Of a stretch of 64,000 nucleotides of DNA, positions 10,999 through 60,963 are shown piece after piece. The stretch is from Candidatus Bathyarchaeota archaeon. GTDB lineage: Archaea > Thermoproteota > Bathyarchaeia > TCS64. The first letter of the stretch is position 1; the number at the start of each line of letters is the position of its first letter. The translations under genes were made by a program, and so were the position numbers. The notes beneath the pieces were generated by a model. That model was not told where the DNA came from, did no database searches, and saw nothing but the letters and a program-made list of their open reading frames with translations. Location: positions 923-64,922 of the forward strand of contig JBDRQD010000039.1 of NCBI GenBank assembly GCA_043826455.1, in the 5' to 3' direction.

Positions 10999-11040
10999 CG
11001 GCTCGGGGCTGTATTTCACCTCACATTTTTTTATCGTATC

Positions 11041-11092
11041 GAGGGGAAGATTTGAACTACCGACCTTTGGGTCATGAGCCTCACGGGCTACC
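11041..11092 (-). pseudogene. Decayed partial copy of tRNA-iMet (anticodon arm to 3' acceptor only)
   Basis: The reverse complement GGTAGCCCGTGAGGCTCATGACCCAAAGGTCGGTAGTTCAAATCTTCCCCTC aligns to the 3' two-thirds of the intact tRNA at 11920-11997. The stems now have mismatches and the 5' part is absent. Confidence 0.6.
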
Positions 11093-11677: not shown

Positions 11678-11919
11678 CAGATCATAAACCTCTCACCCCC
11701 ATCCCCACCCCCTGCCTAACAGCCGCCTCAACAGCGCAGCCCCGAAAAACCACCCCCCATGATAACAAGACAAACAACGAGTACGGCGGACACCGCCGAC
11801 CACCACCACCGCCAACGAACCCCGAAAAAGCCCCCGATCAACAAAACAAGCCAGAACAATGTGAATCGTGGTGGCGGCGGTGGGACCCCCCCTCCCCCCC
11901 ACATGCACGCACAAACAAT
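11678..11919 (+). repeat. A+C-rich intergenic element, copy A
   Basis: Aligns by eye at roughly 80% over ~135 nt to the reverse complement of 60731-60875, and more loosely to 50190-50330. Confidence 0.7.
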
Positions 11920-11997
11920 TGGTAGCGGGGGGTAGATTTGAACTACCGACCTTGGGGTTATGAGCCCCACGGGCTAACCTGGCTGCCCTACCCCGCT
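11920..11997 (-). tRNA. Initiator tRNA-Met (CAT), CCA encoded
   Basis: Reverse complement AGCGGGGTAGGGCAGCCAGGTTAGCCCGTGGGGCTCATAACCCCAAGGTCGGTAGTTCAAATCTACCCCCCGCTACCA. It has A1:U72 and three G:C pairs closing the anticodon stem. Confidence 0.9.
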
Positions 11998-12059: not shown

Positions 12060-12371
12060 ATGCCCCGCCCCAACACCAGACGCATCGCAGAACAACGCAT
12101 AGAGACCCTCTACCACAAGGCAAAGGAAACATACACCGTCAACCCGAACCTCAGCCGCAGATACACCCAGCTCCTCAGACGCATAGCCCAGCGCACCCGC
12201 ACCAAGCTACCCACACACATCAGACGAGGCATATGCAGAGGCTGCGGCACCGTCCTCATCCAGGGCCTCAACAGCCACACCAGGCTCAGGCAGCGCCGGG
12301 AACCCCACATAGCCACCACCTGCCACCTCTGCGGCCACACCCACAGAATACCCATGAGAGACCCACCGTGA
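12060..12371 (+). CDS. rnp4: RNase P protein component 4 (Rpp21/RNP4)
   Basis: Basic N-terminus plus zinc ribbon CRGCGTVLIQGLNSHTRLR...TCHLCGH. Confidence 0.8.
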   Translation: MPRPNTRRIAEQRIETLYHKAKETYTVNPNLSRRYTQLLRRIAQRTRTKLPTHIRRGICRGCGTVLIQGLNSHTRLRQRREPHIATTCHLCGHTHRIPMRDPP

Positions 12372-13396
12372 CCCTCACCCTCATCAGCGTCGGCCTCAGC
12401 AGCCACCTAGACCTCTCCCTCCGCGCCCTAGAAGCCGCCAAAGACGCCCACCACGTCTACGCCGAGACATACACCATGAAACTGGACACAACGATACAGG
12501 CACTCCAGGAAACCCTAGGCAGACCCGTCACACCCCTGGCCCGGGGAGGCCTGGAGGAAGAGGCACCCAGACTCCTGGAGGCCGCCGAGAACTCCAACGT
12601 CGCCATCCTGGTGGGCGGAGACGCCCTCGCCGCCACCACCCACATGAGCCTGCTAGTGGACGCAGCCAAGCGAAGCATCCCCGTCAGGGTGATCCACGGA
12701 AGCAGCGTCTTCACCGCCATAGCAGAGACAGGCCTAAGCCTATACAAGTTCGGCCGAACCGTCACGGTGCCCCTGCCCGAGAAGGGCCCCGTGGACACCG
12801 TCCTCAGGACCCTCAAGGAGAACGTGGAGCACGGCCTCCACACCCTCCTGCTCCTGGATCTGGACATCCCCGCGGACAGGTACCTCACCGTACCCGAGGC
12901 CATCACACGGCTGGAGGCGACCGGGGAGTTCCCCATGGACACCCTCATGGTGGCCGCAGCCAGGCTGGGCTCCAACACCCAACTCGTCCGGGCCGACACG
13001 GCCATGAAACTCAGAGACACCGACTGTGGGGACCCACCATACGCTCTGGTCGTTCCCGGTCAACTCCATTTCTTAGAGGAGGAGGCCTTGCAGGTGGTAG
13101 CGGGCTGCCCCCCCCGCCTACTGGAGGGCAGAAGGGTGCAGGGGGAGGTGGACCGTCTCGTGGAGAAGTACGCCACGGGGTGCCGGAGGGTGCTGGAAGC
13201 CCTTAAGGTGGCTGAGCTGCCAGCCGAGGTGACGGAAGAAGCGGTCGCCGGCCTCCTAGACCACGTGAGGCGCTACCTGGAGGACGCAGAGTACTACCGC
13301 GCGGACCAGAAGCCTGTGGCTCTCACCAGCGTCGCCTACGCCGAGGGCATCTTGGACGCCTTAAAGCTTTTAGGCATAGCCGACTTCCAGTGGTGA
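12368..13396 (+). CDS. dphB: Diphthine synthase with ~75-85 aa C-terminal extension
   Basis: Tetrapyrrole-methylase fold (LTLISVGL..., VAILVGGDALAATTH, YKFGRTVT). The GTG start overlaps the rnp4 TGA (GTGA). Confidence 0.85.
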   Translation: MTLTLISVGLSSHLDLSLRALEAAKDAHHVYAETYTMKLDTTIQALQETLGRPVTPLARGGLEEEAPRLLEAAENSNVAILVGGDALAATTHMSLLVDAAKRSIPVRVIHGSSVFTAIAETGLSLYKFGRTVTVPLPEKGPVDTVLRTLKENVEHGLHTLLLLDLDIPADRYLTVPEAITRLEATGEFPMDTLMVAAARLGSNTQLVRADTAMKLRDTDCGDPPYALVVPGQLHFLEEEALQVVAGCPPRLLEGRRVQGEVDRLVEKYATGCRRVLEALKVAELPAEVTEEAVAGLLDHVRRYLEDAEYYRADQKPVALTSVAYAEGILDALKLLGIADFQW

Positions 13397-34425: not shown

Positions 34426-34430
34426 ATATT
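34405..34430 (-). terminator. T7-terminated conserved box on the minus strand (CGATACCCCCTACTTTTTTT)
   Basis: Downstream of the minus-strand LLM gene and small-ORF unit. Same box family as 28135-28174. Confidence 0.4.
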
Positions 34431-34596
34431 AGAGAATATTTTCATCAATAAAAGAATATGTTGAGCCTCAGGGAAACGTACTCGTTCATGTTCCAGAGGT
34501 ATCCGGGCGGGTCGCGCCGTCAAGATGTTCAAGACATTGCTCCAGTTCGCAGGGTGGATGTGAGACCCGGCATAGGACCGGTTTATGGCTCCAAAT

Positions 34597-34728
34597 CTAC
34601 CTATGTTTATCGAGGTTCTTTTGGCGCCACTTGTCCAGTGTGCGCTGCTTCTCGTCGAGGCTGGCATAGAACTCCCTCAGACAGTCCTGCTCCGTGATGA
34701 TCCTCTTCTTGCTGTCCGAGACGCTCAT
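34597..34728 (-). CDS. Candidate small protein (43 aa, MSVSDSKKRIITEQDCLREFYASLDEKQRTLDKWRQKNLDKHR)
   Basis: Host-like codon usage. A TTTATAG box ends 23 nt upstream of the ATG, a spacing compatible with a leaderless transcript. Too short for the ORF track. Confidence 0.35.
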   Translation of the reverse strand: MSVSDSKKRIITEQDCLREFYASLDEKQRTLDKWRQKNLDKHR

Positions 34729-34870
34729 AGCGGCTGGTACATACTCTGAGTCTATAAATGGAAAATGGAGCCCTGTTTAGGAACACGCTTCAATGCAATT
34801 GGGTGCCGCTGTTGAACCCTTGTAAGAGCTTAGAGGCGGCTCACCCAGATATACAGGGATAAAAAGGAGT

Positions 34871-35875
34871 CTAGGCCTGTTCCTTGAAGTGGGGCAGAAC
34901 CTCCTTACCGAACAAGTTGATGGCGTTCTTCTTGTCGGGCCCCAGGGGCGACCCCGTCACGAAGTGGCTGACACCCTTCCCCAGAATGGTGTCAATCTTC
35001 TCTACGCACATGTCCGGTGAGCCGCAGACGGAGAAGGCGTCTATCATGTCCGAGTCCACGGCGCCGAAGGCCTCACCCCAGTTCCGCTCAGCCAGGTTCC
35101 CCCGGATACCATCGGCCACCTCCACGCTGATGCCGAAGTTCTCCAGGACCGAGGCCGGGCTGCCCGCCACTATGTAGGCCACCACGGGCACCACCGCCTT
35201 CTTGGCCTTCTTCTCAGTCTCAGCTACACTGAAGGAGGTGTACGCGGCCACGTCCACGTCCTCAAACTTTCTGCCGGCGTCCTCGGCCCCCTTCCGTATC
35301 TGCTTCACCGCCCGGTCAATGTCCTCCGGGTGAGACGCGTTGATGAGGGCCCCGTCCCCTATGGCCCCGGCGAGCTGGAGCATCTTGGGTCCCTGGGCCC
35401 CCACGTATATGGGTATGTGGTTCTCCACCTTGAAGTTGAACTTGGCTCCCGGCTTTATCTTGTAGACGGAGCCCTCGTAGCCCTCTTTCTCCCTGGCCAG
35501 CTGCCTCCTGATGATCTCCACGGTCTCCCTCACCGTCCTCACGGGGTTGGTCATCTCGGCGCCCACTATGTCCAGGGAGGTCCTGTCCCCTGCGCCTATG
35601 CCGCACAGCACCCGCCCGGGGGCCACCTCGTCGAGGGACGCCACGGACTGGGCCGTCATCACCGGGTGGACCAGGTAGGGGTTGGTGACCCCGGGGCCCA
35701 TCCTGATCTTGTCAGTGTAGTTGGCTATGAAGCTCAGGCTGACGTAGACGTTCCTATTGTTGAAGTGGTCCGTGATCCAGACGCTGTCGTAGCCCAGCTT
35801 CTCAGCCTGTACAGAGTAGTAGGTGGTCTTCCAGAACAGCTCCATGGGCACGAACTCGATGCCGAAGCTTACCAT
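34871..35875 (-). CDS. LLM-class F420-dependent oxidoreductase (Mer-like)
   Basis: 334 aa. VWITDHF, GIGAGD and family-typical layout. Confidence 0.8.
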   Translation of the reverse strand: MVSFGIEFVPMELFWKTTYYSVQAEKLGYDSVWITDHFNNRNVYVSLSFIANYTDKIRMGPGVTNPYLVHPVMTAQSVASLDEVAPGRVLCGIGAGDRTSLDIVGAEMTNPVRTVRETVEIIRRQLAREKEGYEGSVYKIKPGAKFNFKVENHIPIYVGAQGPKMLQLAGAIGDGALINASHPEDIDRAVKQIRKGAEDAGRKFEDVDVAAYTSFSVAETEKKAKKAVVPVVAYIVAGSPASVLENFGISVEVADGIRGNLAERNWGEAFGAVDSDMIDAFSVCGSPDMCVEKIDTILGKGVSHFVTGSPLGPDKKNAINLFGKEVLPHFKEQA

Positions 35876-35899
35876 CTCTCCTCACCATCGATAAAAAAA

Positions 35900-36190
35900 T
35901 TAGAATTGTTTATCCCAGATGGGGCTGAACGCCTTCGCCAGGTTTTGCAGCTTGAACTCGTCCAGCACCTGGGCCAGCTTCTCAGGTTCAGCCCCAGCCA
36001 TGGCCTCCAGCAGGTGGGTGAGCCCCACCTGGCTGCCTAGCTGGTCCCTCTGCCAGTAGTGAAGGATGATCTTCGCAAGGTGGGGGGGAACAGCGCCTCT
36101 CCCCGACTCCAAGAGTATGTCTGTGAGCCTCTCGGCGAAGGGCTCTCTCGCCGTCTTCGGGATCAATTTGGCTAGCTCTCTATACTCCAT
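35900..36190 (-). CDS. Hypothetical protein (96 aa)
   Basis: ORF upstream of and co-oriented with the LLM gene. No recognisable family. Confidence 0.45.
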   Translation of the reverse strand: MEYRELAKLIPKTAREPFAERLTDILLESGRGAVPPHLAKIILHYWQRDQLGSQVGLTHLLEAMAGAEPEKLAQVLDEFKLQNLAKAFSPIWDKQF

Positions 36191-36230
36191 TTTTCACTCA
36201 ACATATACTATGATTCAGTTTCATTTGTGT

Positions 36231-36320
36231 TATTCGAAAACCCTAATCCTTGTTTTTCGAACCCTGTGCCATGTACATCGAACCTTTAGGACCCAAAACG
36301 TGTTGATTAAACTCGAAAAA
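36231..36320. promoter_or_regulatory. Array of TTCGAA-core boxes in the divergent promoter region next to the Lrp/AsnC gene
   Basis: TTCGAA at 36233 and 36256, ATCGAA at 36277 and CTCGAA at 36312. The first three are spaced 21-23 nt apart and followed by (A)ACCCT / ACCTT. Confidence 0.45.
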
Positions 36321-36441
36321 GAAAAACATAATTACTATAATTACAATATTTACTTATAAAAGGGGTGAGAAAAAAAATTGTATTTTAAAGATAAATTAGT
36401 GACCTATGGACACCAAAAATTAACAAAAACAGGTGACCTAA

Positions 36442-36888
36442 ATGTCGGTTGACAGGCTCGATCTACAGATAATCAGATCCCTCAACAAGAACGCGAGAAA
36501 ACCCTACAAGGACATCGCCAAGGAGCTGGACGTGAGCGACACCACCGTCCGGAAACGGATACAAAAGATGCTGGACGAAGGCATAATCAAGCAGTTCAAC
36601 GTCCTGCTGGATTACCACAAGATCGGGAGGATCATCAAGGCCTTCATAGGCATAAGGCTGAACCCTCCTCGACTGAAGGACGTGGTCAGCCACCTGGAAG
36701 ATAACCCCGACGTGCAGGTGCTCTACAGGACCACGGGGAACGTGGACCTGTTCGTGGAGGTCATCTTTAGGGACATGGAGGAGCTCAACGCCTTCCTGGA
36801 GAACGAGCTGAACGTGGAGGGAATCACAGGGACAGAGGTAACCATAGTCATCGGCCCTTACAAGAGGTGCCCGTGCACAGGGCTCTAG
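36442..36888 (+). CDS. Lrp/AsnC family transcriptional regulator
   Basis: LDLQIIRSLNKNARKPYKDIAKELDVSDTTVRKRIQKM HTH plus RAM domain. Confidence 0.85.
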   Translation: MSVDRLDLQIIRSLNKNARKPYKDIAKELDVSDTTVRKRIQKMLDEGIIKQFNVLLDYHKIGRIIKAFIGIRLNPPRLKDVVSHLEDNPDVQVLYRTTGNVDLFVEVIFRDMEELNAFLENELNVEGITGTEVTIVIGPYKRCPCTGL

Positions 36889-36897
36889 CCGGTCACC

Positions 36898-37470
36898 CTA
36901 TTTTTTTCTTGGCTTAACAGTCAGCGTTATCAGGCCTTCTTCGTCCGTGCTGGCGTCGAGCTTGACGCTGAACAGGGTGTCAAGGTATCCTCTCATGAAG
37001 GTCACTGGGACGGCCAGGTGCTCAACCTTGATCTCGTCGCCTTTCAGGGTGAACTTGCCCCAGCCGTAGTTCTCCAGTTCGTTGAGGATGACGTTCCAGT
37101 TGTCCTGGGTGCTGAGGTCCAGCTCGTGGTCGAAGACGTCCAGGGCCTTCCGGTTCCTGGCTATCATGCTTGAGACGCTGTACAGCTTGGAGTCGCTCAT
37201 GGTGCTCAGCACGTCGTCCATGATGCCCTGGGCCACTATCATGACCCTCTCCTGCCCCATCCTGTAGACGTAGGGGAACCAGTCCTGCATGTTTAGCTTC
37301 TTGAATATCCTGAGGGCGGCTAGGACGGCCTCCTCCTTGCTGTCGATCCTCCTGCTGTTTTCCAGGAAGCCCAGGTAGGTGTACAGACTCTTGTCGAGGC
37401 GGACTGTCAACTCGTACTCCTTTTTCTTGGTGTCACCCACACGTGTCTTTGACTGTCTCCCAGAGTCCAA
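36898..37470 (-). CDS. Hypothetical protein, possibly an N-terminal ribbon-helix-helix plus a C-terminal ligand-binding-like domain
   Basis: The EYELTVRLDKSLYTYL...AVLAALRIF pattern is RHH-like. The C-terminus (GWGKF...) is weakly V4R-like. This is inference only. Confidence 0.4.
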   Translation of the reverse strand: MDSGRQSKTRVGDTKKKEYELTVRLDKSLYTYLGFLENSRRIDSKEEAVLAALRIFKKLNMQDWFPYVYRMGQERVMIVAQGIMDDVLSTMSDSKLYSVSSMIARNRKALDVFDHELDLSTQDNWNVILNELENYGWGKFTLKGDEIKVEHLAVPVTFMRGYLDTLFSVKLDASTDEEGLITLTVKPRKK

Positions 37471-37570
37471 GGCAAGAGTAACTTGTTTTCAGAGTTTATT
37501 AAATCTGGGGGCTGGTTCCTAAAGCTTTAACCAGACCAGAATGGGTGCCGTGAGGATACAGGTTCCTCAT

Positions 37571-43054: not shown

Positions 43055-43410
43055 AATGATACCCCCCTACGTTTTTTCACATCAGGCTCTCCATCACGCC
43101 TTGCTTTATGTGTTGAATGGGCCGCGTTTTTGTATGGAATGGATAGCGTTTTTGCGTAGATTGGGATCGAAAAGGCGGGTTTCCTGGCCTCCTTTTGGCG
43201 TGGGGCGGCCGTTTCCGGTTTTTCTTGCTCTACCCCCCTCCCCCCTCTCTGGGGCTGTGGTGCTGGCGTGGTGAGTGTAACGTTTTCCGGGAGTGGCTTA
43301 TCCCATGCCGGACGGGATAAGGCGGAAAAAAAATCCATCTTATATTACATGTTTTTGCTTCGGTGAGGCTCCTCCTCATCCTCGGCTCAGGAGCTCAGGA
43401 AAACACTGTT
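43055..43410 (-). repeat. Inverted-repeat partner R (~355 bp)
   Basis: The reverse complement aligns to 34090-34425, including the CCGCCTTATCCCG...GGGATAAGCC hairpin and CAGCACCACAGCCCCAGAGAGGGGGGAGGGGG. Confidence 0.65.
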
Positions 43411-47376: not shown

Positions 47377-48555
47377 CTATACTTTAGACTTGCTTTTTAG
47401 AAGGGATATAATCGGTATACCCAGAGCTATCGATAGAGCTGCGAACAGGAAGGGTGAGGTCTGTGAAACACTGCCATACAGGTAGCCCCCTATCAGGGGG
47501 CCCACGGTGAACCCGAGTCTTAGCCCTGTGGCGTTTATCCCGAAGCCGGCCCCCTGAAGCTCCTTAGGCACCATGGTGGACAGTGTCGTCAGGTTGCTGG
47601 GCCAGGTGACGCTCCACATGGCCGTCCCTAAAGCGTACAGGACCAGGAGCAGAACCCAGTTGTCGGTGAAGCTCCACAGCGCGAAGAAGACAGGCATCAC
47701 CGCTGTGCACACCAGCAGAATCCTCTTGGGGTCGTACCGGTCGGCAAGTCTACCGGCCGGCACCTGCGTCAGTAGGGTGACCAGGTTGGACGCCGTGAAG
47801 AACAGGCCGATGCTGAGAGGCGTCAGCCCGTAGACCTCGGCCAGGTACAGGGGCACCACCAGGTTCACGGCCCCTAAGGCCGTGGTCATGAGGAACGGGG
47901 CCACACACATGACGAACAGCACCCTCAGGGTGTCTCGCTCCAGCAGCCTCCTCAGGTCGGGCGCCTTCCTGGCTGCGCCGGGCTCACGCTCCTTCTCCTT
48001 GATCATCAGCGCGGGCACCAGGCTCACTGCGCTCACAGCCGCCGAGACTAGGAACACGTTTCTCCAGCCCGAGGTTTCCACTATGAGGCCACTCACCACA
48101 GGGCTTATGATCCCCGTTATGGGCCAGGCCATGTTCATCAAACCGAAGAGGAGTGCCCGGTTCTGCACCGTGGCGTTCTCGGAGACCATGGCCATCCTGG
48201 CCGGCACAAACAAGGCGCCCACGAGGCTGTACGCCACGTAGAAGGGCAGCACCGTGCTCCAGCTCTCTGATGAGGAGATCAGGTAGACGGCCGTGGCCCC
48301 CACCGCCGCGTTCAGCGCCAGGAACAGCCGCTTGCCGAACCTATCCACCACCACCCCTGAGGGGAACATGAGCAGGGTGGCCGCCAGGTTGCCGGCGGAG
48401 ATTACGTAGCTGATCTCAGCCTTCCCGGCCCCCACGGTCCCCAGGAACAGGGGGAACAGGGGGTTGATCATCTGCATGGACAGCCCAAACGCGATGTTCA
48501 CCAGGAAGAGGAGAGCCAGGTTCCTGCTGATGCTCCTAAGCATAACAGGCACCAT
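47377..48555 (-). CDS. MFS transporter
   Basis: 392 aa multi-TM protein. Confidence 0.8.
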   Translation of the reverse strand: MVPVMLRSISRNLALLFLVNIAFGLSMQMINPLFPLFLGTVGAGKAEISYVISAGNLAATLLMFPSGVVVDRFGKRLFLALNAAVGATAVYLISSSESWSTVLPFYVAYSLVGALFVPARMAMVSENATVQNRALLFGLMNMAWPITGIISPVVSGLIVETSGWRNVFLVSAAVSAVSLVPALMIKEKEREPGAARKAPDLRRLLERDTLRVLFVMCVAPFLMTTALGAVNLVVPLYLAEVYGLTPLSIGLFFTASNLVTLLTQVPAGRLADRYDPKRILLVCTAVMPVFFALWSFTDNWVLLLVLYALGTAMWSVTWPSNLTTLSTMVPKELQGAGFGINATGLRLGFTVGPLIGGYLYGSVSQTSPFLFAALSIALGIPIISLLKSKSKV

Positions 48556-48649
48556 GAAATGAGCCCTCCGTGATAAATCTACCCCCGCCAGATGTGCAAA
48601 ACCATATGTGGGTAACCCGACATTGAATATTCAGAGCAGGCTGACCACC

Positions 48650-49390
48650 ATGTCCGAGGAGACCCTCTACGAGAGATTGACCCCAGCCGCCCTCGAGGCC
48701 AGGATAAAGTCCGCGCCAATAGCCTACCTGCCCCTGGGCACCCTGGAGTGGCACGGCCCCCACCTGCCCCTGGGCAGCGACCACCTCCAGAGCCAAGGCT
48801 TCTTCACCCAGCTGGCCAGGCGCGCCGGAGGCGTGGTCCTGCCGCCATTGTTCCTGGGCCCGGACTCGGTGAAGATGGTGGACGGCGCCGAGTACTACGG
48901 CATGGACATCCACCAGAATGCCTACCCTTACCCCGTCCGCCTCAAGGGCAGCGCCTACTGGGTCCCCGATAAGCTGTTCACGGAGATCGTGGACGCCGTC
49001 CTCAAGCAGCTCCGAAGAGCAGGCTTCAGGATCGTGGTGGCCCACGGACACGGCCCAAGCACAAACCTGGTCATCAAGAACCGTGAAAGCCTAGAAAAGA
49101 GGCACGGCCTCAGGGTACTTACGCTGTGGGATGGTGAGGGCAGGGACCGGGACACCGGGTTCCAAGTCGACCACGCGGCCGCCAACGAGACCAGCATCAT
49201 GATGGCCCTCCACCCAGCCCTGGTGCACATGGAGCACCTACCGAGGGACCCAGCCGAGCAGCCCCTCGCCACCATAGGCAAGGACCCCAGGACCCACGCC
49301 TCGTACGCCCACGGCCAGAGGATCGTCGCCACAAACCTTGACTGCATGGAGTCCCTGCTGAGGAAAGAGTTGACGCAGATCACTAGATGA
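48650..49390 (+). CDS. Creatininase-family amidohydrolase
   Basis: LPLGTLEWHGPHLPLGSD and AHGHGPS motifs. ATG 48650 is preferred over the track start 48608. Confidence 0.8.
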   Translation: MSEETLYERLTPAALEARIKSAPIAYLPLGTLEWHGPHLPLGSDHLQSQGFFTQLARRAGGVVLPPLFLGPDSVKMVDGAEYYGMDIHQNAYPYPVRLKGSAYWVPDKLFTEIVDAVLKQLRRAGFRIVVAHGHGPSTNLVIKNRESLEKRHGLRVLTLWDGEGRDRDTGFQVDHAAANETSIMMALHPALVHMEHLPRDPAEQPLATIGKDPRTHASYAHGQRIVATNLDCMESLLRKELTQITR

Positions 49391-49441
49391 AGTGAGGATA
49401 AAATTATTGATTGGGTGAGAGTATACGTGATGTGATAAAGT

Positions 49442-50005
49442 ATGGTCGCTCAGCCTAATCTTGAGACTGAAAGACTGATCCTGAGACCATTCAAGCCAAG
49501 CGACGCAGAACAAGTACAGAGACTAGCCGGATCAGAAGAGGTAGCCGAGACCACGAACCTACCCCACCCCTACACCGTGGAGATGGCAGAGGAATGGATC
49601 AAGACCCACGAACCGGCGTACAGGATGGGCTGAGGAGCCGCCTATGCCATCACGCTGAAGAACACCGGCGAACTCATCGGAGCGATCAGCCTCATGGACA
49701 TCACCCAGCCCAGCAACCACGCCCGCATCGGGTTCTGGGTGGGCGTACCCTACTGGAACAAGGGGTACTGCACGGAGGCCGGGAAAGCCGTCCTGGAGTA
49801 CGGCTTCCAAGTGAGACACCTCAACCGCATCCACACAGGCTACATGATCAGCAACCACGCCTCAGGCCGCGTACTGGAGAAGCTCGGCATGGTGTACGAG
49901 GGAACCCAGAGACAGCACATCACCCGACTAGGAAAACACGAAGACCTGATCCTCGTGGGACTACTGAGATCAGAGTGGATCAAAAACCAGGACAAGGCAC
50001 CGTGA
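49442..50005 (+). pseudogene. GNAT (RimJ/RimL-like) N-acetyltransferase interrupted by an in-frame TGA at 49631-49633
   Basis: Track ORFs 49442..49633 and 49694..50005 are in the same frame. The read-through sequence is ...HEPAYRMG*GAAYAITLKNTGELIGAISL... Confidence 0.7.
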
Positions 50006-50332
50006 CGCGGGCCCCCCACATTCTGCCGAGAACCGGCAACACCCACTGACCCATCAAAAAAGGCTCAATGCATCCACTGCCCACCCCTCCGCCACCATAC
50101 ACCAACCCCGAACAAACATTAACCAAATCCACGAACAACCAAACAAGAAAAAACCCAAAACAAAACAGAAAAACAAACCCACACCCCAACCCACGACAGA
50201 CACCACCACAAACCGCCACCATAAAACAACCCCAAAAAACACCCGAACACCAAAACAAACCAAAAAACAGCAAACCATGACAACGACGACAATCCCCCCG
50301 GGGGGGTATGCACACACACAACAAAACAAAGG
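50006..50332 (+). repeat. A+C-rich intergenic element, copy C (most extreme)
   Basis: 50101-50280 contain only 10 G and 5 T in 180 nt by hand count. The 3' end aligns to copy A (…ATGCACRCACAACAA followed by a tRNA 3' end). Confidence 0.6.
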
Positions 50333-50415
50333 TGCGGGGGGAGGGATTCGAACCCTCGAAAGCCTAAGCTATAGGATCTTGAGTCCCACCCCTTTGGCCA
50401 CTTGGGAACCCCCGC
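50333..50415 (-). tRNA. tRNA-Leu (CAA) with long variable arm
   Basis: Reverse complement GCGGGGGTTCCCAAGTGGCCAAAGGGGTGGGACTCAAGATCCTATAGCTTAGGCTTTCGAGGGTTCGAATCCCTCCCCCCGCA. Confidence 0.9.
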
Positions 50416-50493
50416 CCAGAACAAAACAAACACCACCAACATAAAACCGTTCCCCACAAACCCAAATACCACAACAACCAAACCCATACCAAG

Positions 50494-51195
50494 ATGAGGA
50501 CCACCATAAGCCTCGGCGGCAGCCTACTCACCGGCGACAAAAACGACCCCACACTCACCCTAACCCCCAAACCCTACCGAGCCTACGCCACAGTCCTAAG
50601 GCAGCTCCACGACCTCGGCCACCAGATCATGGTTGTATGCGGAGGAGGAAAACCCGCACGCCACTACATCCAGGTAGCCAAAAACCTGGGCGCGTCACGA
50701 TCCATCCAGGACATGCTGGGCGTCAAGGCCACCCACATAAACGCCCTCCTCCTCACAGCCGCCCTAGGCGACACAGCCGACCAGACCAGAATATACACCC
50801 GGGCAACGGAGCTAAGATACCGCCAACCCGACAAGATATGGGTGGGCGGAGGCTATAAGCCCAAAAGCAGCACCGACTACCGGGCCATCCTCCTCGCCCG
50901 CGCCCTCGGCTCAGACGCCGTCATCAACGCCACCGACGTCCCAGGCGTCTACGACTCCAACCCCCACACCAACCCCAAAGCCAGAAAGCTCGACACGGCA
51001 ACCCACGCCCAGCTAGAGAGAATCATCAAAGAAAGCACCAGGCAGGCCCCAGGCGAGTACGGCCTCTTCGACCTCAAAGCAGTCAAACTAGCCGCCAGGA
51101 TCAACATGCCCCTCATCTTCATAGACGGCAGAGACCCCGAGGAGCTGAGACGAGCCGTCGAAGGCGGCCACAGCGGCACAGTAGTGAAGACTTAG
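50494..51195 (+). CDS. pyrH: UMP kinase (archaeal type)
   Basis: ISLGGSLL...VVCGGGKPARHY...GGYKPKSSTD pattern, 233 aa. Confidence 0.9.
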   Translation: MRTTISLGGSLLTGDKNDPTLTLTPKPYRAYATVLRQLHDLGHQIMVVCGGGKPARHYIQVAKNLGASRSIQDMLGVKATHINALLLTAALGDTADQTRIYTRATELRYRQPDKIWVGGGYKPKSSTDYRAILLARALGSDAVINATDVPGVYDSNPHTNPKARKLDTATHAQLERIIKESTRQAPGEYGLFDLKAVKLAARINMPLIFIDGRDPEELRRAVEGGHSGTVVKT

Positions 51196-51234
51196 CCCTC
51201 TCATGTTTTAATCCCTGAAAACCAACAATAACCC

Positions 51235-52692
51235 ATGACAGGTCACAGAGTAGTCATCGGCTCGATAGCCCACGAGACCAACACCTTCAGCACCGTAAAG
51301 CTCAGACTACCCGACTTCAACCCCCTCTACGGAGACGACATCACCAAAGTCCTCAAAGGCACCAGAAGCGGCATAGGCGGCTTCATAGACGTCCTCGAAA
51401 AAGAGGGCGTAGAAATGGTCTTCACCATATCAGCCCACGCCACCCCCGCTGGCCCAGTCAACCACACAGACTACAGGCGCATGGTGGACACCATCTTAGA
51501 AGGCGTCAAAGATGAGAAGGTGGACGGGGTCCTCCTAGCCCTCCACGGAGCCATGGTCGCCGAGAACGTACCGGAGGCCGAGGGCGTCCTCCTAGAAGAA
51601 GTACGCAAACAAGTAGGCAAGAAGCCCATCATCATCACCCTGGACCTCCACGGACTAATCTCCACCAAGATCATAGACAACTGCGACGCCGTCTACGGCT
51701 ACGACACCAACCCCCACATAGACATGTACGAGCGAGGCGTCGAAGCCGCCGAGACCATGGTAAAAACCCTCAGAGGCGAACTCAAACCCGTCGTCGCCCA
51801 CAAGAAGCTACGAATGCTGCCCCCGACGATCAACCAGAGAACCACCGAGGGCCCCATGGTGGAGCTCCTTAAAGAAGCACGGAAGATGGAGAAGAAGCCG
51901 GGCGTCCTCAACGTATGCATCTTCCCCGCCTTCCCTTACGCCGACGTGCAGCGCGCAGGCTCAGCAGTGGTGGCGGTCACCGACGGCGACAAGAAGCTGG
52001 CTCAGAGCCTCTGCGACCAGCTGGGCGAGAAGATGTACGCCATGCGCCAGCAGTTCCTGAAGCAACTCACACCCATAAAGGAAGCAGTGAAACGAGCCGT
52101 CGATGCACCGGAGAGACCTATAGTGTTGGCTGACGTGGCGGACAACCCAGGCGGAGGAGCCCCAGGGGACGGCACAGAGATACTCCGGGAGCTCATGAGG
52201 GTGAAGGCTAAGAGCGTGAGCGTCGCCATCATCAAGGATCCCGAGGCGGTAGCCGAGGCCATAAAAGTCGGCGTCAAGGGCACCCTCCGAATGCCCATCG
52301 GGGCTAAGACGGACACCTTCCACGGCAAACCCGTTAAGGTGGAGGGCACGGTGCGCACCATCACGGACGGCAGGTTCATCCACAAGGCCATGGCCGTGGG
52401 CGTTCCCGCCGACGTGGGCCGGACAGCCGTCATCGACGTGGACGGCATAGAGATCATCCTCACCGAGAAGAGCCACGCCCCCAACGACCCAGAGATATAC
52501 AGGCGCAACGGCATCGAGCCCACCGACAAGAAGATACTGGTGCTGAAGAGCCGCGGCCACTTCAGGGCAGCCTACGAGCCCTTCAGTAAGGAGATCATAG
52601 AGGTGGACGCCCCAGGCCTCACTTCCCCCAACCTGAGCTGGTTCAAGTATACCAACATACCGCGCCCCATCTGGCCCTTCGACCCAGTCTAG
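51235..52692 (+). CDS. MlrC-like (M81) metallopeptidase
   Basis: N-terminal IGSIAHETNTFS and family-typical length (485 aa). Confidence 0.8.
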   Translation: MTGHRVVIGSIAHETNTFSTVKLRLPDFNPLYGDDITKVLKGTRSGIGGFIDVLEKEGVEMVFTISAHATPAGPVNHTDYRRMVDTILEGVKDEKVDGVLLALHGAMVAENVPEAEGVLLEEVRKQVGKKPIIITLDLHGLISTKIIDNCDAVYGYDTNPHIDMYERGVEAAETMVKTLRGELKPVVAHKKLRMLPPTINQRTTEGPMVELLKEARKMEKKPGVLNVCIFPAFPYADVQRAGSAVVAVTDGDKKLAQSLCDQLGEKMYAMRQQFLKQLTPIKEAVKRAVDAPERPIVLADVADNPGGGAPGDGTEILRELMRVKAKSVSVAIIKDPEAVAEAIKVGVKGTLRMPIGAKTDTFHGKPVKVEGTVRTITDGRFIHKAMAVGVPADVGRTAVIDVDGIEIILTEKSHAPNDPEIYRRNGIEPTDKKILVLKSRGHFRAAYEPFSKEIIEVDAPGLTSPNLSWFKYTNIPRPIWPFDPV

Positions 52693-52841
52693 CCGAGGCT
52701 ACAGTAAAAGGGGGTGGCGTCCACCACATTCACGGGCTGGCTCATAGAGAACCAGGACACCGGAGTAATACTCCTCCTGTCCCTGAGATTGCTTGTTCCC
52801 ACGTGCCTAATAGCGGTCGCCCTGTGAAGACGGGCTGCTAG

Positions 52842-54128
52842 CTAAATCATGCCCCTGGCTAGGTCATCCAAGCTCTCCCTACTTCTCACCAGCCGGGCCT
52901 CGCCACCCAGCACCATGACCTCGGGGGCTCTGGGCCTGGAGTTGTACTGGCTGCTCATGGAGAAACCGTAGGCCCCCGTGTTCATTATGGCTAGAAGGTC
53001 CCCCTCCTTAGGGTGAGGCATGGGCCTGTCCCTGGCGAAGACATCCCCTGACTCGCACAGAGGCCCATAAACGTCGTAGATGCCCTCCTCGCCTTTGAGG
53101 TTCGAGGCGTTCAGAATCTCGTGGTATGACCCGTACATGGCCGGCCTCACCAGGGTGTTGAAGCCCGCGTCCACCCCCACGTAGCGCCTGAAAGGGTTAT
53201 CCTTGAGGGTGGTGACCCTGGTAAGCAGCGCCCCCGCGTCCGCCACGATGAACCTGCCCGGCTCAAGCCAAAGCTCGGGGTTGCCCAACCCGTAGGCCTC
53301 AACCTTCTCTTTGATGAAGCCAGCCAGCTCCTCCAGGAAGCCGTCCAGGTCCACCTCCTCCTCACCAGGCTTGTAGGGCACCCCTATTCCTCCGCCCAGG
53401 TCAATGAACTCGAACTCGACGCCTAGCCTCTCATGCACCTTGGCTGCTATCTCCAGCATCCTGCCAGCCGCCCTGACGTAGTGGTGGGCGTCACTGATCC
53501 CTGACCCTATGTGCATTTGCACGCCGAACCTCTTCACTCCGGACTCCGCGGCCTCGGAGTAGGCCTTGACTGCGTCCTCATCCCACACCCCGAACTTGGC
53601 GTGGGCCCCCGCGGTGATGACGTGCTCGTGGTGGCCGGCCCCCAGCTCCGGGTTCACCCTGAAGCTCAGAGTGTCGGGTATGTGATATGTGAGCAAACGC
53701 TTCAGCTGAGACCTGGAGTCAAGGTTTAGCCTGACTCCTCTCTCAACGAGCCACCTCATCTCCTCGTCTGAGACGCTGGTGCCCGTGAACAGGATCTGGT
53801 CAGGATGGAACCCAACCTTCAGGGCCAGGTGCACCTCGCCTGGGCTCACAGCATCGATCTCTGAGCCCAGCCTCCTCAGCAGCCTGAGGATAGCTAGGTT
53901 GGTGTTAGCCTTGGCCGCGTAAAGTATCCTGGACCTGGGGTACGCACTTCCTAGGGCGTCCCTCAGTCTCGTGTAGTTGTCCGCTATCCTCTTCTCGCTA
54001 TAAACGTAGAGGGGTGTCCCGTGGGCTCTGGCTATCTGCTCCGCCGACGCTTCGTCGATGTGGAGCTTTCCGTCGACTTCTGTGAAGGGCGGCCTCATGA
54101 CAAGCTCTCTGGTACCTGATCCGCGCAC
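52842..54128 (-). CDS. lysA: Diaminopimelate decarboxylase (fold-III PLP decarboxylase); ATG 54098 is an alternative start
   Basis: YAAKANTN, HIGSG and CESGD motifs. Confidence 0.8.
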   Translation of the reverse strand: MRGSGTRELVMRPPFTEVDGKLHIDEASAEQIARAHGTPLYVYSEKRIADNYTRLRDALGSAYPRSRILYAAKANTNLAILRLLRRLGSEIDAVSPGEVHLALKVGFHPDQILFTGTSVSDEEMRWLVERGVRLNLDSRSQLKRLLTYHIPDTLSFRVNPELGAGHHEHVITAGAHAKFGVWDEDAVKAYSEAAESGVKRFGVQMHIGSGISDAHHYVRAAGRMLEIAAKVHERLGVEFEFIDLGGGIGVPYKPGEEEVDLDGFLEELAGFIKEKVEAYGLGNPELWLEPGRFIVADAGALLTRVTTLKDNPFRRYVGVDAGFNTLVRPAMYGSYHEILNASNLKGEEGIYDVYGPLCESGDVFARDRPMPHPKEGDLLAIMNTGAYGFSMSSQYNSRPRAPEVMVLGGEARLVRSRESLDDLARGMI

Positions 54129-54237
54129 GGGCTATAAAATATATGACCCACTCCAGGAGCAACACTAATGTAATACATAGTTTACATTTAGTAAAGTTTA
54201 TATTACGCATTGTAAAGTATACTTTACATGATGAGGT

Positions 54238-54624
54238 ATGAACGCTGAACAGTATAACCGGGTTAAGGCGGCGGTGGCCGTCGCCGTAGGAATAGTGGCG
54301 GCTGTAAGCGCCGTAAACAACAGCTTCACTCTGCTGCTTGCCGCAGTCACACTCGGCATGGTGGTGCTCTACGCCGGCAAGCAGAGGGTGACCGAGATAC
54401 GTGCAGATGAGAGGACCAGCCTCGTAAGGCAGAAGGCCGCGGCCACCACCATGGGGGTGACCACCGTCCTAATGGCCGCTGTGGGAATCCTACTTGTTTT
54501 CGCTTCGAGGCAGGGCCTAGCCGACTTTGAGCAACTGGGCTACGCCCTGGCTTTCCAGGCCAACATAATAATGGGTGTGAACGCCTTCCTGAACTGGCAC
54601 TACAGGAACCAGATGGGGGGCTGA
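54238..54624 (+). CDS. DUF2178-like membrane protein
   Basis: 4-TM small protein immediately upstream of a small XRE regulator, which is a typical pairing. Confidence 0.55.
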   Translation: MNAEQYNRVKAAVAVAVGIVAAVSAVNNSFTLLLAAVTLGMVVLYAGKQRVTEIRADERTSLVRQKAAATTMGVTTVLMAAVGILLVFASRQGLADFEQLGYALAFQANIIMGVNAFLNWHYRNQMGG

Positions 54625-54628
54625 GCGG

Positions 54629-54832
54629 GTGGAGAACAACCTGAGAGTCCTCAGAGCCACCAGGAACATCACCCAGGAGGACCTGGCCAAGAAGCTGGGG
54701 GTCACCAGACAGACCATCCACGCCATCGAGACCGGCAAGTACAACCCCAGCCTAGACTTGGCCTTCAAGCTAGCCAAATACTTCGAGACAAGGATCGAGG
54801 ACGTCTTCACCTACAAGGAGGAGCTTCCCTGA
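54629..54832 (+). CDS. XRE-family HTH transcriptional regulator
   Basis: LRVLRATRNITQEDLAKKLGVTRQTIHAIETGKYNPSLDLAFKLAKYF. Confidence 0.85.
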   Translation: MENNLRVLRATRNITQEDLAKKLGVTRQTIHAIETGKYNPSLDLAFKLAKYFETRIEDVFTYKEELP

Positions 54833-54836
54833 AAAC

Positions 54837-55751
54837 ATGGAATTCCCAGTGGCTGGATCGTGGGCCCCGCGGATAATGTTTAAACTCCTCCGTTCCCACT
54901 CATCTTCTGATTTTATGGCAATAATAGATACGCTCCTCAGCAACATATGGGTCATCTTCCTGTTCTTCACTCTCATATACCCCCGCCTACAGCAGGGGCT
55001 CATCCAGAACGCGAGGTCAAGCGACCTCAGTAGACTAGGAAAAAAACGGGGAACCAGCGTCATAACACTCATCCACAGACAGGAGACCCTCAGCCTCTTC
55101 GGGTTACCCATCAGCAGGTACATAGACATAGACGACAGCGAGGACCTACTCCGAGCCATTAGGCTGACACCCGACGACCAGCCCATAGACCTCATAATCC
55201 ACACGCCGGGCGGCTTAGCCCTGGCCGCCACCCAGATAGCCTTCGCACTAAAAGCCCACAAGGGCAAGACCACCGTCATGGTCCCCCACTACTCCATGAG
55301 CGGCGGCACCCTAATCGCCCTCGCAGCCGACGAGATACTCATGGACGCCCACGCCGTCCTAGGCCCCGTGGACCCCCAGATAGGGACAAGCACCGGCTCC
55401 TTCGCAGCCTCAAGCATACTAAAGGTTGTGGAGAAAAAGGAGCCCAAGGACACGGACGATGAAACCATGTACCTGGCCGAGGAAGCCCGCAAGGCCATCG
55501 GGCAGATGAAGGACACCGTGAGGCAGCTCATAGGCGACAAGTATCCCCCCGACAGAATTGAGGCCATAATAAGCGACCTCGTAACCGGAAAATACACCCA
55601 CGACTTCCCTATAACGTCTGAGACAGTATGTAGTCTGCTCGGCCAATGCGCCTACCCTGAACTGCCTCTGGAGGTGTACACCCTGATGAACCTCTACAAG
55701 ATGGGTCAGCAGCGCAGACCCGGTGTCGAGTATGTCCCCATGGCCACCTGA
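54837..55751 (+). CDS. ClpP-fold serine protease of the SDH (serine dehydrogenase proteinase) family
   Basis: DLIIHTPGGLALAATQIA...MSGGTLIALAADEILM pattern plus an N-terminal TM segment. Confidence 0.6.
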   Translation: MEFPVAGSWAPRIMFKLLRSHSSSDFMAIIDTLLSNIWVIFLFFTLIYPRLQQGLIQNARSSDLSRLGKKRGTSVITLIHRQETLSLFGLPISRYIDIDDSEDLLRAIRLTPDDQPIDLIIHTPGGLALAATQIAFALKAHKGKTTVMVPHYSMSGGTLIALAADEILMDAHAVLGPVDPQIGTSTGSFAASSILKVVEKKEPKDTDDETMYLAEEARKAIGQMKDTVRQLIGDKYPPDRIEAIISDLVTGKYTHDFPITSETVCSLLGQCAYPELPLEVYTLMNLYKMGQQRRPGVEYVPMAT

Positions 55752-58699: not shown

Positions 58700-59632
58700 T
58701 TAGGAAGCGCCCATGGCTAGGGCCATGGCGCCGTATAGAACCACGTCCTCTCCCAGGGGGGTTATCATGATCCTGGGCAGCCTGTTGATGGCGTGCTTAG
58801 CCATGTAGTGCTCTATGGGCATCAGTATCAGGTCAGGGTTGTTGAGGGCTATGCTTCCGCCTACGGTTATCAGCCCGGGGTCATAGGCGTTCACTATGTC
58901 TGCGAAGCCGATGGCGTTGACCTTGCCTATCTCTTCCACCACCATGAGGGCGTGGTCGTCTCCCTGCTTGGCTGCGTCGAAGATCATCTTGACCGTGATG
59001 TTCTTGGGGTTTCCTCCGCAGAGGTCGCTGAGGAGGCTGCTCCTCCACTTCGTGCCCCTGAGAATGGTTCTGGCGTAGTAGGGGATGTTTTTTCCTCCGC
59101 TGAAGGCCTCCCAGTGGCCCGGGCCGCCGCAGCCGCACAGTATTCTGCTGTTGGGGTGTATGGTGAGGTGGCCTATCTCCACGGCGTTGCCGTCCTTACC
59201 CATGAGGAGATGGCCGTCCACTATAGCTCCGCCGCCCAGCCCTGTGCTCATGGTGACGTAGAAGAGGTTCTCGGTGTCCTGGCCTGCGCCGAACACGTGT
59301 TCCCCCAGGACGCCGGCGCTGCAGTCGTTGACTATCTTGATGGGGACGTCGTACATTGTTTTCAGGGGCTCTGTGATAGGTATCTCCTTGTAGGGGTAGT
59401 TGGGGGTGTTGGTGATCATTCCCCTTGTGTAGTCGATGGGCCCTATGGAGCCGATGCCGATGGCCACGGGGTTCTCCTCCAGTTCGCTTATCAACCTTAT
59501 GATCTGGAGTGGTATGCCTTCGGGGCCGCCGGCTTTGTCGGTTTCCTCTGAGGCCTTTCTTTTTAACCCGGATTCGTCGCCGCACGCGATGCGGATATAC
59601 GTGGCTCCGATATCCACGGCTACGTAGGACAA
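58700..59632 (-). CDS. ROK-family sugar kinase
   Basis: VAVDIGATYIR N-terminus and CGCGGPGHWE zinc motif. Confidence 0.8.
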   Translation of the reverse strand: MSYVAVDIGATYIRIACGDESGLKRKASEETDKAGGPEGIPLQIIRLISELEENPVAIGIGSIGPIDYTRGMITNTPNYPYKEIPITEPLKTMYDVPIKIVNDCSAGVLGEHVFGAGQDTENLFYVTMSTGLGGGAIVDGHLLMGKDGNAVEIGHLTIHPNSRILCGCGGPGHWEAFSGGKNIPYYARTILRGTKWRSSLLSDLCGGNPKNITVKMIFDAAKQGDDHALMVVEEIGKVNAIGFADIVNAYDPGLITVGGSIALNNPDLILMPIEHYMAKHAINRLPRIMITPLGEDVVLYGAMALAMGAS

Positions 59633-59668
59633 GGCAGTTCAAAGAAAATGGTTGAGGTAGATAAATGG

Positions 59669-60691
59669 TTACCGCTTGGCCGCGATACTGGTCTTGAGGC
59701 TGCCTATCTTCTCTATCCAGGCTTCGAGCTTGTCGCCGGGCTTCAGGAACAGCTTGGGGTCTGTCTTGCCGTCCACCATGGGGGTCTGGTCCATGGCTGT
59801 GCCGCTGCAGGTTCCTCCGCAGATTATGTCTCCGGGGTAGAAGACCATGTCTCTGGTGAGGTGGCTGAGCCACCAGTCGTAGCCTCTGATGATGCTCTCC
59901 ATTGTGCCGTCCTGGCGTAGCTCTCCGTTGACCCACTGCTTAATCCGCAGCTTGTAGGGGTCACCGATCTCGTCGGCCGTCACGATGCAGGGGCCCATGG
60001 GGGCGCATCCGTCGAAGTTCTTGGCGTAGAACAGGCCGTCCGGTCCGGGTCTCCTGCCTCCGTCTCTGATGCTGAGGTCGTTGACGATGGTGTACCCGTA
60101 GATGATGCTCACGGCGTCTTTCTCGGCCACGTCCTTGCACTGTTTGCCGATGACGGCTGCTAGCTCCACCTCGTAGTCGAGGCGCTGGGTCCTGCTTGGG
60201 TAGGGGGTCTCCCCGCCTGGGCCTATGACGCATCCGGCGTGTTTCCAGAAGCCCCAGGCCGGGTACTCACCCTTCTCTACCTGTTTCTTGAGGTCCTCGA
60301 TGGTGGTCGTGGTGTCGCCGCGTAGGGTCTTGGCTGCGTCCAGGCTGTGGTCGTAGAAGTTGGCTCCGGCCATGGCTATCTTGGTGGCTTTGCTGGGCAG
60401 GGGGGCGTGGAGTTTGACCTCCTCACCTGAGTAGTGGAGCTTCTCGCCTCTGGGCCCTTGCTTGTTGCCTGCCTTGACGTGGGCCACGGCTTTCTTTGCT
60501 TCGTCCAGCCCCTTCTTGCCTTCCTGGATGAAGGCCAGGAGGTCTGCGGGTACTGTGGCGTCCGCCTTGGCTTGTGGCCGGGGTTCTCCTCGGCTCTTGA
60601 GGTAGGCTGCGTAGGCGTGGTTGAGGTCTGTGACTGTTCCGTCTTCCTGGAGGGCTCCGAGCCTCCCGGTGTTGTATGTGACTAGTTTCAT
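59669..60691 (-). CDS. Fumarylacetoacetate hydrolase family protein
   Basis: C-terminal FAH domain (YEVELAAVIG, GDIICGGTCSG). Confidence 0.85.
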   Translation of the reverse strand: MKLVTYNTGRLGALQEDGTVTDLNHAYAAYLKSRGEPRPQAKADATVPADLLAFIQEGKKGLDEAKKAVAHVKAGNKQGPRGEKLHYSGEEVKLHAPLPSKATKIAMAGANFYDHSLDAAKTLRGDTTTTIEDLKKQVEKGEYPAWGFWKHAGCVIGPGGETPYPSRTQRLDYEVELAAVIGKQCKDVAEKDAVSIIYGYTIVNDLSIRDGGRRPGPDGLFYAKNFDGCAPMGPCIVTADEIGDPYKLRIKQWVNGELRQDGTMESIIRGYDWWLSHLTRDMVFYPGDIICGGTCSGTAMDQTPMVDGKTDPKLFLKPGDKLEAWIEKIGSLKTSIAAKR

Positions 60692-60963
60692 GGATTGATG
60701 ATGGTGGGTTTTGTGTTTAAAGACATTGGGGTGGTTTGTGTGTGTGCACGTGGGGGGGGGGGAGGGGGGGTCCCATCACCGCCACCGCGGTTCCCGGTTT
60801 TCAGGCTTGTTTACTTGATCGGAGGCTTTTTCAGGGTTTCTAGGCGGTGGTGGTGGTGGGTGATGTCCGCCGCGGGGCGTCAGTTGTTCAACAATGGCTT
60901 GACTGCTGTGTGGAAGCGTGTGATTTGAGGCGGGGCTGTTTTTCTGGAAGCTGTCAAGGCTGA
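60692..60963 (-). repeat. A+C-rich intergenic element, copy B (inverted; G+T-rich as read on the + strand)
   Basis: The reverse complement of 60731-60875 aligns to 11781-11915. Weaker similarity extends across the whole intergenic region. Confidence 0.65.

Follow-up and report, generated by a model that had tools for sequence, protein, structure and literature searches.

A G-depleted hairpin-element copy beside tRNA-Leu(CAA) and a one-sided A+C-rich zone in Bathyarchaeia

The locus and its features

The window analyzed here is a 64-kb stretch of Bathyarchaeia DNA with a G+C content of about 60%, whose proteins match 'Candidatus Bathyarchaeota' entries. A gap of 327 nt separates a GNAT acetyltransferase gene from tRNA-Leu(CAA), and A and C make up 83% of this region (50006-50332; Table 1). 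An earlier sequence-only reading designated it copy C, a version of two other repeat copies in the window (A and B) from which G and T had been removed by directional G-to-A and T-to-C transitions. The composition on which that reading relied, 98 A, 67 C, 10 G and 5 T in the 180 nt of 50101-50280, is exact, as are its coordinates, including those of the compared block of copy B (60771-60789, minus strand).

The GNAT (Acetyltransf_3) gene is divided into two ORFs by a TGA codon at 49631-49633, where close homologues are uninterrupted. The codon is also present in a second assembly from the Logan collection, and the gene is probably a pseudogene. The TGA is not a TGG-to-TGA mark of G>A mutation, an idea that was rejected because the homologues have R, K, S or H at this position.

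Table 1. Features of the window that bear on copy C and its relatives
Feature	Position	Strand	Basis or remark
Partial copy of tRNA-Met, 3' 55 nt	11036..11090	+	89% identical to 11922-11976; brackets flavodoxin gene and copy A
Copy A, intact predicted hairpin	11784..11919	+	Adjoins tRNA-Met 3' end; fold z -3.4 on + strand; E=1.9e-31
tRNA-Met(CAT)	11920..11997	-	ARAGORN, Rfam
Rpr2 gene and TP_methylase-domain gene (possibly diphthine synthase)	12060..13396	+	Downstream of copy A, in skew zone
GNAT acetyltransferase gene with one in-frame TGA	49442..50005	+	Adjoins copy C
Upstream A+C-rich tract (~85% A+C), same intergenic region as copy C	50006..50192	+	Composition
Copy C core, G-depleted, apparent structure-dead family member	50193..50332	+	Adjoins tRNA-Leu(CAA) 3' end
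CCCCCC GGGGGGG palindrome	50294..50306	+	Read directly; CCCCCCGGGGGGG in copy C, CCCCCCTCCCCCCC in other copies
tRNA-Leu(CAA)	50331..50415	-	ARAGORN; Rfam RF00005, 51.4 bits; 3' end meets copy C
tRNA-Leu-pyrH spacer, 78 nt, 90% A+C	50416..50493	+	Conserved in L034, L038, L040, L041
pyrH and MlrC-like (M81) gene, within skew zone	50494..52692	+	Pfam; third codon positions 83% and 70% A+C
FAA-hydrolase and ROK-kinase genes	58700..60691	-	Downstream of copy B; third positions 72% A+C on coding strand
Copy B, intact predicted hairpin, between MFS and FAA-hydrolase genes	60735..60872	-	No tRNA nearby; E=7.6e-33; fold z -2.8

A conserved hairpin element of Bathyarchaeia

Copies A and B are 81% identical across 134 nt. 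A single degenerate pattern covering A, B and C led to two Bathyarchaeia MAGs and to a contig filed under a bacterial MAG, and a slightly looser pattern recovered about 17 true copies in metagenome contigs, plus chance matches. The extra copies, about 20 from Bathyarchaeia contigs, have nhmmer E-values of 1e-21 to 1e-38. The contig filed under a bacterial MAG ('Candidatus Desulfaltia'; L003, DATKWY010000339.1) carries a full-length element at 7197-7329 (E=6e-33) and is probably a mis-binned archaeal contig. Aligned with one another, the copies define what appears to be a conserved, multi-copy hairpin element of Bathyarchaeia of about 150 nt.

The element consists of a GC-rich arm, a loop of about 55 nt, a complementary arm that closes a long-range stem, a C-tract and then CACGTGCAC. 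The loop is nearly invariant and reads GAAAAAGCCYCCGATCAAnnAAACAAGCC on the A+C-rich strand. A third GC-rich segment lies upstream and repeats the 3' arm, so that an alternative pairing with the middle arm is possible. Across 17 copies the family stem is 93.7% paired, a value reached by 1 of 500 shuffles. Covariation is 0.294 against 0.249 in shuffled alignments (also 1 of 500), with double changes at 4 of 15 pairs; controls slid by ±3 are themselves fairly high, the arms being triplet repeats.

Several features bear on which strand would form the structure. The consensus fold has a predicted energy of -15.4 kcal/mol on the G+U-rich strand and -1.95 kcal/mol on the A+C-rich strand, and the stem mismatches on the latter (17 A.C and 2 G.T) are wobble pairs on the other strand. 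Energies and mismatches favor an RNA transcribed from the G+U-rich strand, but the same mutation bias that is discussed below would also yield them. In all five tRNA-linked copies the G+U-rich strand is that of the tRNA.

At the gathering threshold, Rfam 15 recognizes only three tRNAs in the window, and the intact copies L002 and L004 have no Rfam match at E≤1 with permissive filters. A scan of IMG/VR with the conserved core pattern gave 0 matches, which leaves a viral origin of the element without evidence. Readings of the element by eye as a C/D-box RNA, an H/ACA RNA or an integron attC-like site were dropped, as the box motifs are not conserved. A G-quadruplex in the C-tract was also discarded, because L002 and L004 lack the 7+7 G-tract that three quadruplex layers would require. 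A literature search, which is weak evidence, turned up no description of the element or of an archaeal gradient of the kind reported below; the hairpin repeat is apparently undescribed.

tRNA flanks and genomic islands

The element is often found directly after a tRNA 3' end and at island margins. Five copies have a tRNA gene ahead of them (Met, Leu twice, Glu and Gly), and about two thirds of copies lie away from any tRNA. At the window's tRNA-Met, a partial repeat of the tRNA 3' end (Table 1) sits 886 nt from the intact gene in AT-rich, T-run-flanked sequence, and it resembles a distal att site that would close off a small island remnant with the flavodoxin gene and copy A. The related contig L034, which is syntenic with the window through mlrC, pyrH, tRNA-Leu(CAA) and the element, has a 250-nt direct repeat (5173-5428 and 12061-12308, 96-97% identical) made up of 18 nt of the tRNA-Leu 3' end, the spacer and half of the element. 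Between its two units lies a 6.9-kb island with reduced G+C, whose genes specify HTH proteins as well as large proteins of the secreted or membrane type. Direct repeats of a tRNA 3' end around foreign DNA, the arrangement of an att-proximal module, are thus found at the window's tRNA-Met and at tRNA-Leu in L034. No integrase was found among the L034 island ORFs or the window ORFs scanned.

In three other relatives, unrelated AT-rich DNA adjoins the same tRNA-Leu. The L037, L038 and L039 contigs break at or just past tRNA-Leu(CAA), as would fit a repeat or a strain-variable island. Because the adjoining DNA varies, L034 carries an island and contigs break here, the tRNA-Leu flank is taken as a site of repeated insertion.

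Elsewhere in the window, the stretch 33000-37500 has a G+C content of 0.49-0.53, against about 0.60 overall, begins right after tRNA-Arg(GCG) at 33595-33672, and may likewise be an island beside a tRNA gene. The window also contains two copies, at 34136-34393 (+) and 43099-43359 (-), of a different and unrelated repeat of about 260 nt (77-84% identity). This repeat combines a CTTATCCCG...CGGGATAAG hairpin with a GGGGGGAGGGGG tract and gives no Rfam match at the gathering threshold; one of its copies lies about 540 nt downstream of tRNA-Arg(GCG).

Copy C as a degraded member of the family

Compared as plain nucleotides with the family profile, copy C scores only 13.7 bits (nhmmer, E=0.005). Chance matches chosen by the search pattern score about as well (L036, 18.2 bits), and the pattern had been built so as to include copy C. 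On this comparison, copy C might be taken for a chance likeness within an A+C-rich, low-complexity tract. The picture is different when G and A, and T and C, are collapsed. Copy C and copy A then align over about 109 nt with one gap and a score of 61, a score reached by 0 of 1000 dinucleotide shuffles (19.3±3.0; z about 13.7). The sequence-only reading had made its claim dependent on statistical support for the alignment, and in collapsed letters that support is strong. Against the family consensus, copy C has a collapsed score of 57, whereas among 3016 real 400-nt windows (300 kb) the non-family maximum is about 38 and the median 21. The purine/pyrimidine pattern has been kept while the bases themselves changed, and homology therefore holds for 50193-50300, the only part of copy C that can be aligned.

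Features that do not depend on the collapsed alphabet point the same way. Copy C occupies the same position and orientation relative to a tRNA 3' end as four other copies, among them copy A, L006 and L034a. It has a CGACGAC arm variant in common with L034a, L005 and L033, and it also shares the tail ATGCACACAC / ATGCACAC. Over 50193-50300, by alignment and placement, copy C is a real but degraded homologue of A and B. The Logan assembly of SRR26275510 is identical to window positions 47494-53831 at 6338 of 6338 bases, although it possibly derives from the same reads; the concern that the tract is an assembly artefact was met by this comparison, and an artefact at copy C is unlikely. Copies A and B fold better than shuffled sequences, and copy C has no significant fold on either strand; the long hairpin of A, B and the other copies has been lost in C.

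The argument for conversion had been extended to the whole 180 nt, and here it fails. About half of that stretch lies in 50006-50192, and this tract does not significantly resemble the upstream portions of 14 other copies, whether compared in ACGT or with purines and pyrimidines collapsed. The proposal that this tract is a converted upstream part of the family was rejected on these grounds, and with it a by-eye likeness between GGCTCAATGCATCC and AGCTAAATGCAACC. A conserved oligo-T terminator on the G+T-rich strand is likewise unsupported, T-runs being expected at such a composition.

Near the end of the alignable part, a perfect palindrome (50294-50306) keeps 7 of copy C's few remaining G residues. 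These form a run of seven G at 50300-50306 that persists in an otherwise G-stripped copy, and the palindrome could have come from a template-switch event.

Direction and spectrum of change in copy C

The agreement of A with B had been taken, by parsimony, to make C the derived copy. Three sequences form an unrooted tree from which a direction is not obtainable, so the argument does not hold, but its conclusion is borne out by the ~20 extra copies and L034a. The G-rich arm that is missing in copy C is present in all of the extra copies except L012/L030, and no other G-poor copy was found among the ~20. L034a, the positional counterpart of C, has an intact G-rich right arm and loop; its left arm has been replaced at the island junction. 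By these comparisons copy C is the derived state; what it has lost is specifically G, and mostly through transitions.

Where the consensus reaches at least 70%, copy C keeps A at 27 of 31 sites, C at 36 of 48, G at 5 of 18 and T at 1 of 4. The G sites have changed to A 11 times and to C twice, and the T sites to A three times and to C not once. At 50% consensus, G>A is found at 16 of 25 G sites and C>T at 4 of 48 C sites (Fisher p=1e-6). The directional excess was confirmed by comparison with 17 other family members, in which G>A numbers 0-4 each and A>G occurs in similar numbers. The fraction of C has stayed steady (0.41 in copy C, about 0.40 typically), while A has risen by 0.14 and G has fallen by 0.10.

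The 19-nt block from which the original argument was made fares less well. A recount of C against A gives 12 differences rather than 13, namely 8 G>A (not 9), 2 T>C, 1 G>T and 1 A>C. Copy A, as a member of a divergent subfamily, is a misleading reference; from the family consensus, GTGGCGGCGGCGACTAC, copy C differs at 8 positions, of which 5 are G>A. The T>C component is not supported. At both of its positions the family consensus has C, and it is the A/B subfamily that is derived there. T>C on the A+C strand, the expected partner change (equivalent to A>G on the exposed strand), was not seen in copy C at the 4 T sites with at least 70% consensus; overall there are 0-2 such events at 4-6 T sites.

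A multiple alignment with dinucleotide context, suggested originally as a means of revealing a deaminase-like target motif, upholds the prevalence of G>A and is ambiguous as to context. G followed by C was lost at 9 of 9 sites and other G at 7 of 16 (p=0.008); the sites number only 25, and as most of them fall within the GGC-repeat arm, context is inseparable from the arm.

A one-sided A+C zone beside the element

Among the intergenic regions of the window, strong A+C skew is found only around the three copies. The zone begins at the element and fades in a single direction. The same is seen when loci are anchored at the element (14-20 loci). Mean A+C is 0.50-0.53 upstream, rises to 0.71 in the first 200 nt (0-200), and then declines through 0.63 (200-400) and 0.59 (400-800), to return to about 0.5 by +1.8 to 2.6 kb. 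Downstream and upstream means are 0.592 and 0.519 (14 loci, Wilcoxon p=0.005), with the proviso that the loci are not fully independent: L004 and L035 are orthologous, as are C and L034a in their downstream parts. Downstream of copy A, A+C falls from 0.73 to about 0.5 by position 13000.

Genes within the zone are affected according to their orientation. Third-position A+C in co-oriented genes is 0.83 in pyrH, 0.85 in Rpr2 and 0.72 in the FAA hydrolase, compared with about 0.56 typically. Convergent genes (two Pfam-confirmed and one ORF) turn G+T-rich at third positions toward the element, with runs in that direction of 0.42, 0.50 and 0.64 in the MFS gene of L026, 0.55, 0.65 and 0.72 in the aminotransferase gene of L003, and 0.66, 0.69 and 0.90 in the L002 ORF, which has no Pfam match. 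The polar skew follows the DNA strand relative to the element and not the sense of the gene. As the bias crosses genes in either orientation, it argues against codon or mRNA selection. The skew shares with that of mitochondrial DNA that it follows a strand and is graded with distance from a fixed point. Downstream of L005/L034b lies a low-GC island with A+C of 0.46 and no skew; a skew-free young island fits a slow process.

Two more general sources of skew were considered. Genome-wide transcription-coupled skew was rejected, since co-oriented intergenic regions of the window have an A+C of only about 0.53 on the sense strand. If the element were a fork barrier, the way A, B and C are oriented would agree with a replication origin at 52.5-58.7 kb; neither an Orc1/Cdc6 gene nor a skew inversion lends this support.

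Substitutions in the neighboring pyrH-mlrC genes of related contigs offer an additional view of the process. Between the window and L034, 50001-52400 has 113 G>A and 31 A>G differences; farther off, at 54201-55600, the numbers are 30 and 34. The claim that the bias did not arise from selection on coding sequence is sustained by this excess, by the non-coding nature of copy C and by the bias at third positions of genes on either strand. The pyrH-mlrC sequences split into two clades, which without an outgroup gives no direction, and only singleton changes were therefore used to count by lineage. Ratios of G>A to A>G are 11:2 in the window, 9:3 in L037, 30:1 in L038 and 4:23 in L040. The coding changes on the window's terminal branch (11 G>A, 8 C>T, 14 C>A and 1 G>T) amount to a general GC-to-AT change in which G>A and C>T are weakly asymmetric and the strong asymmetry is between C>A and G>T; part of this may reflect selection against codons that end in T. 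Few T>C changes appear among the coding differences.

The pyrH protein of the window (50494-51195) differs from that of L034 (4326-5027) largely by Ala>Thr, Val>Ile, Asp>Asn, Glu>Lys and Ser>Asn, which are the replacements expected from G>A at first and second codon positions.

Explanations for the loss of G

The explanation we consider probable, with appreciable room for doubt, is that copy C is an unconstrained copy of the hairpin element that has been eroded by a local, polar, strand-asymmetric mutation pressure. On average, copies of the element stand at the upstream edge of a one-sided, A+C-enriched zone of about 1-2 kb. In working copies, selection would keep the G of the stem and loop in place; copy C would have lost this constraint, and its G would have been replaced, mainly by A, until the local mutational equilibrium was approached. 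The adjacent tRNA has its sense on the G+T-rich complement, where G>A is C>T, and we infer that cytosine deamination of this strand, repeatedly single-stranded, would be the source. Candidate causes of such exposure are nick resection, fork stalling, R-loop formation and transcription that sets out from the element.

The mechanism supposes that the element causes the zone rather than marks it. Two observations bear on this point. In L038, unrelated AT-rich DNA lies at tRNA-Leu (at least 72 nt, to the contig end), yet this lineage has the strongest specific G>A drift, so that the element may mark the zone rather than cause it. The window, for its part, keeps a G>A excess (11 versus 2) though copy C is already dead. 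A causal version, in which the hairpin element would act in cis to expose one strand, time after time, to one side of itself (through nicking and resection, as a polar barrier to replication forks, or by starting very active transcription or an R-loop), is put forward only tentatively, and we regard it as rather doubtful. If it were true, dozens of places on Bathyarchaeia chromosomes would carry a heritable, polar mutation gradient of about 1-2 kb, nearby housekeeping genes would be pushed toward A+C-rich codons and toward replacements by Thr, Ile, Asn and Lys, and copy C would have been worn away by the zone that it created.

A different view is that selection holds the region A+C-rich, because RNA or DNA composed of A and C alone cannot base-pair. 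Such sequence might serve as a leader or spacer free of structure, as the promoter-proximal part of leaderless mRNAs, or as a platform for protein binding, and copy C would then be a functional variant without the hairpin. The 78-nt tRNA-pyrH spacer, 90% A+C and conserved in five relatives, speaks for this view, and in at least 10 of about 15 loci the gene downstream has the same orientation, with A+C of 0.67-0.68 in the first 150 nt. But the bias also extends through convergent genes, where its sense is wrong for the mRNAs they encode and where it rises toward the element, and it affects synonymous third positions over 1-2 kb, far beyond the reach of a leader effect. No other copy among the ~20 is G-poor, moreover, and copy C's tract shows no sequence conservation with the other copies. 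We consider selection of this kind improbable.

It is also unlikely that copy C was struck on its G+T-rich strand, in one or a few events, by a single-strand-specific cytosine deaminase of the APOBEC/AID-like or toxin type, in a manner comparable to the editing of retroelements or foreign DNA. Such an episode would account for the dense, strand-coordinated conversion on the A+C strand (16 of 25 G, as against 4 of 48 C), a clustered pattern of the sort left by single-strand cytosine-deaminase hypermutation, and for the preferential loss of G in GpC. Only one of about 20 copies is affected, and copy C lies at an island-prone tRNA flank. On the other side, Pfam identifies no DNA deaminase domain in the 23 window ORFs near the three copies, and the inference of a deaminase enzyme is not supported; the only related protein is dCTP deaminase-like, an enzyme that acts on nucleotides. 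The GpC sites lie mostly in the (GGC)n arm, where context cannot be separated from lost constraint, and the run of seven G escaped conversion. A weaker bias in the same direction, around the other copies examined and in several lineages, suggests a standing pressure rather than an episode.

That copy C is no homologue at all, being either a chance likeness or a product of sequencing or assembly, is most improbable given a collapsed score far beyond both shuffled and real sequence, its placement at a tRNA 3' end, the arm variant and tail found in other members, and the identical second assembly.

Comparison with known systems

Local, polar pressure on one strand, the explanation preferred here, has precedents. 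Localized polar mutation gradients are familiar from mitochondrial replication and from antibody genes. In vertebrate mtDNA a deamination gradient reportedly arises because the H strand is single-stranded during strand-displacement replication (Reyes et al. 1998; Faith and Pollock 2003). The zone described above is similar in that G+T accumulates on one strand and A+C on the other, third codon positions show the effect most, genes encoded in the reverse sense (ND6 in mtDNA) carry the opposite skew, and the strength is graded by position. Unlike mtDNA, the zone here is chromosomal, extends for about 1-2 kb and issues from a dispersed repeat at many loci, and its single-strandedness is presumed.

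Transcription-associated mutagenesis and AID-type somatic hypermutation also produce a gradient that is strongest near a promoter and decays over 1-2 kb. Polar, kilobase-scale decay from a fixed start and a spectrum of mainly C>T/G>A are common to that system and this one. However, if transcription here ran in the A+C direction, the sense strand would gain C and lose G, the opposite of what deamination of the non-template strand yields.

As in APOBEC G-to-A hypermutation and fungal RIP, one copy has undergone dense, strand-coordinated G>A change that destroyed its function. No reverse-transcribed intermediate is involved here, in contrast to the hypermutation of retroelements by APOBEC enzymes. 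RIP acts on both strands and on all copies of a duplication, prefers CpA and requires repeats of hundreds of bp, whereas here one of three copies is altered on one strand in what may be a GpC context, the repeat is about 150 nt long, and A and B are intact.

To our knowledge, no polar gradient tied to a dispersed chromosomal element has been recognized in archaea.

Archaeal elements that integrate at tRNA genes use, for example, SSV-type and pNOB8-type integrases (for the SSV family, PMC7253208). The copies found here resemble the flanks of archaeal att sites in that they adjoin tRNA 3' ends, in that direct repeats with tRNA 3' parts (55 nt at the window's tRNA-Met; 250 nt, 18 of them from tRNA-Leu, in L034) bracket islands, and in that relatives carry differing DNA at the same tRNA. 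They are unlike a simple att core in having a conserved hairpin and loop, in that about two thirds of copies are not adjacent to a tRNA, and in the lack of an integrase among the scanned ORFs.

Significance

On a practical level, the element breaks assemblies, and the contigs of several relatives end at the adjoining tRNA. The element family, together with its one-sided skew zone, is a more interesting result than copy C itself. If the reading given here holds, the window provides a rooted, within-genome record of strand-specific mutation on neutral DNA, and a mutation process would be tied to a defined, conserved element in an uncultured class of archaea. It would also explain the unusual codon and amino-acid usage of neighboring genes. 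For Bathyarchaeia, which are not growable, the element could become a handle on replication, repair or transcription.
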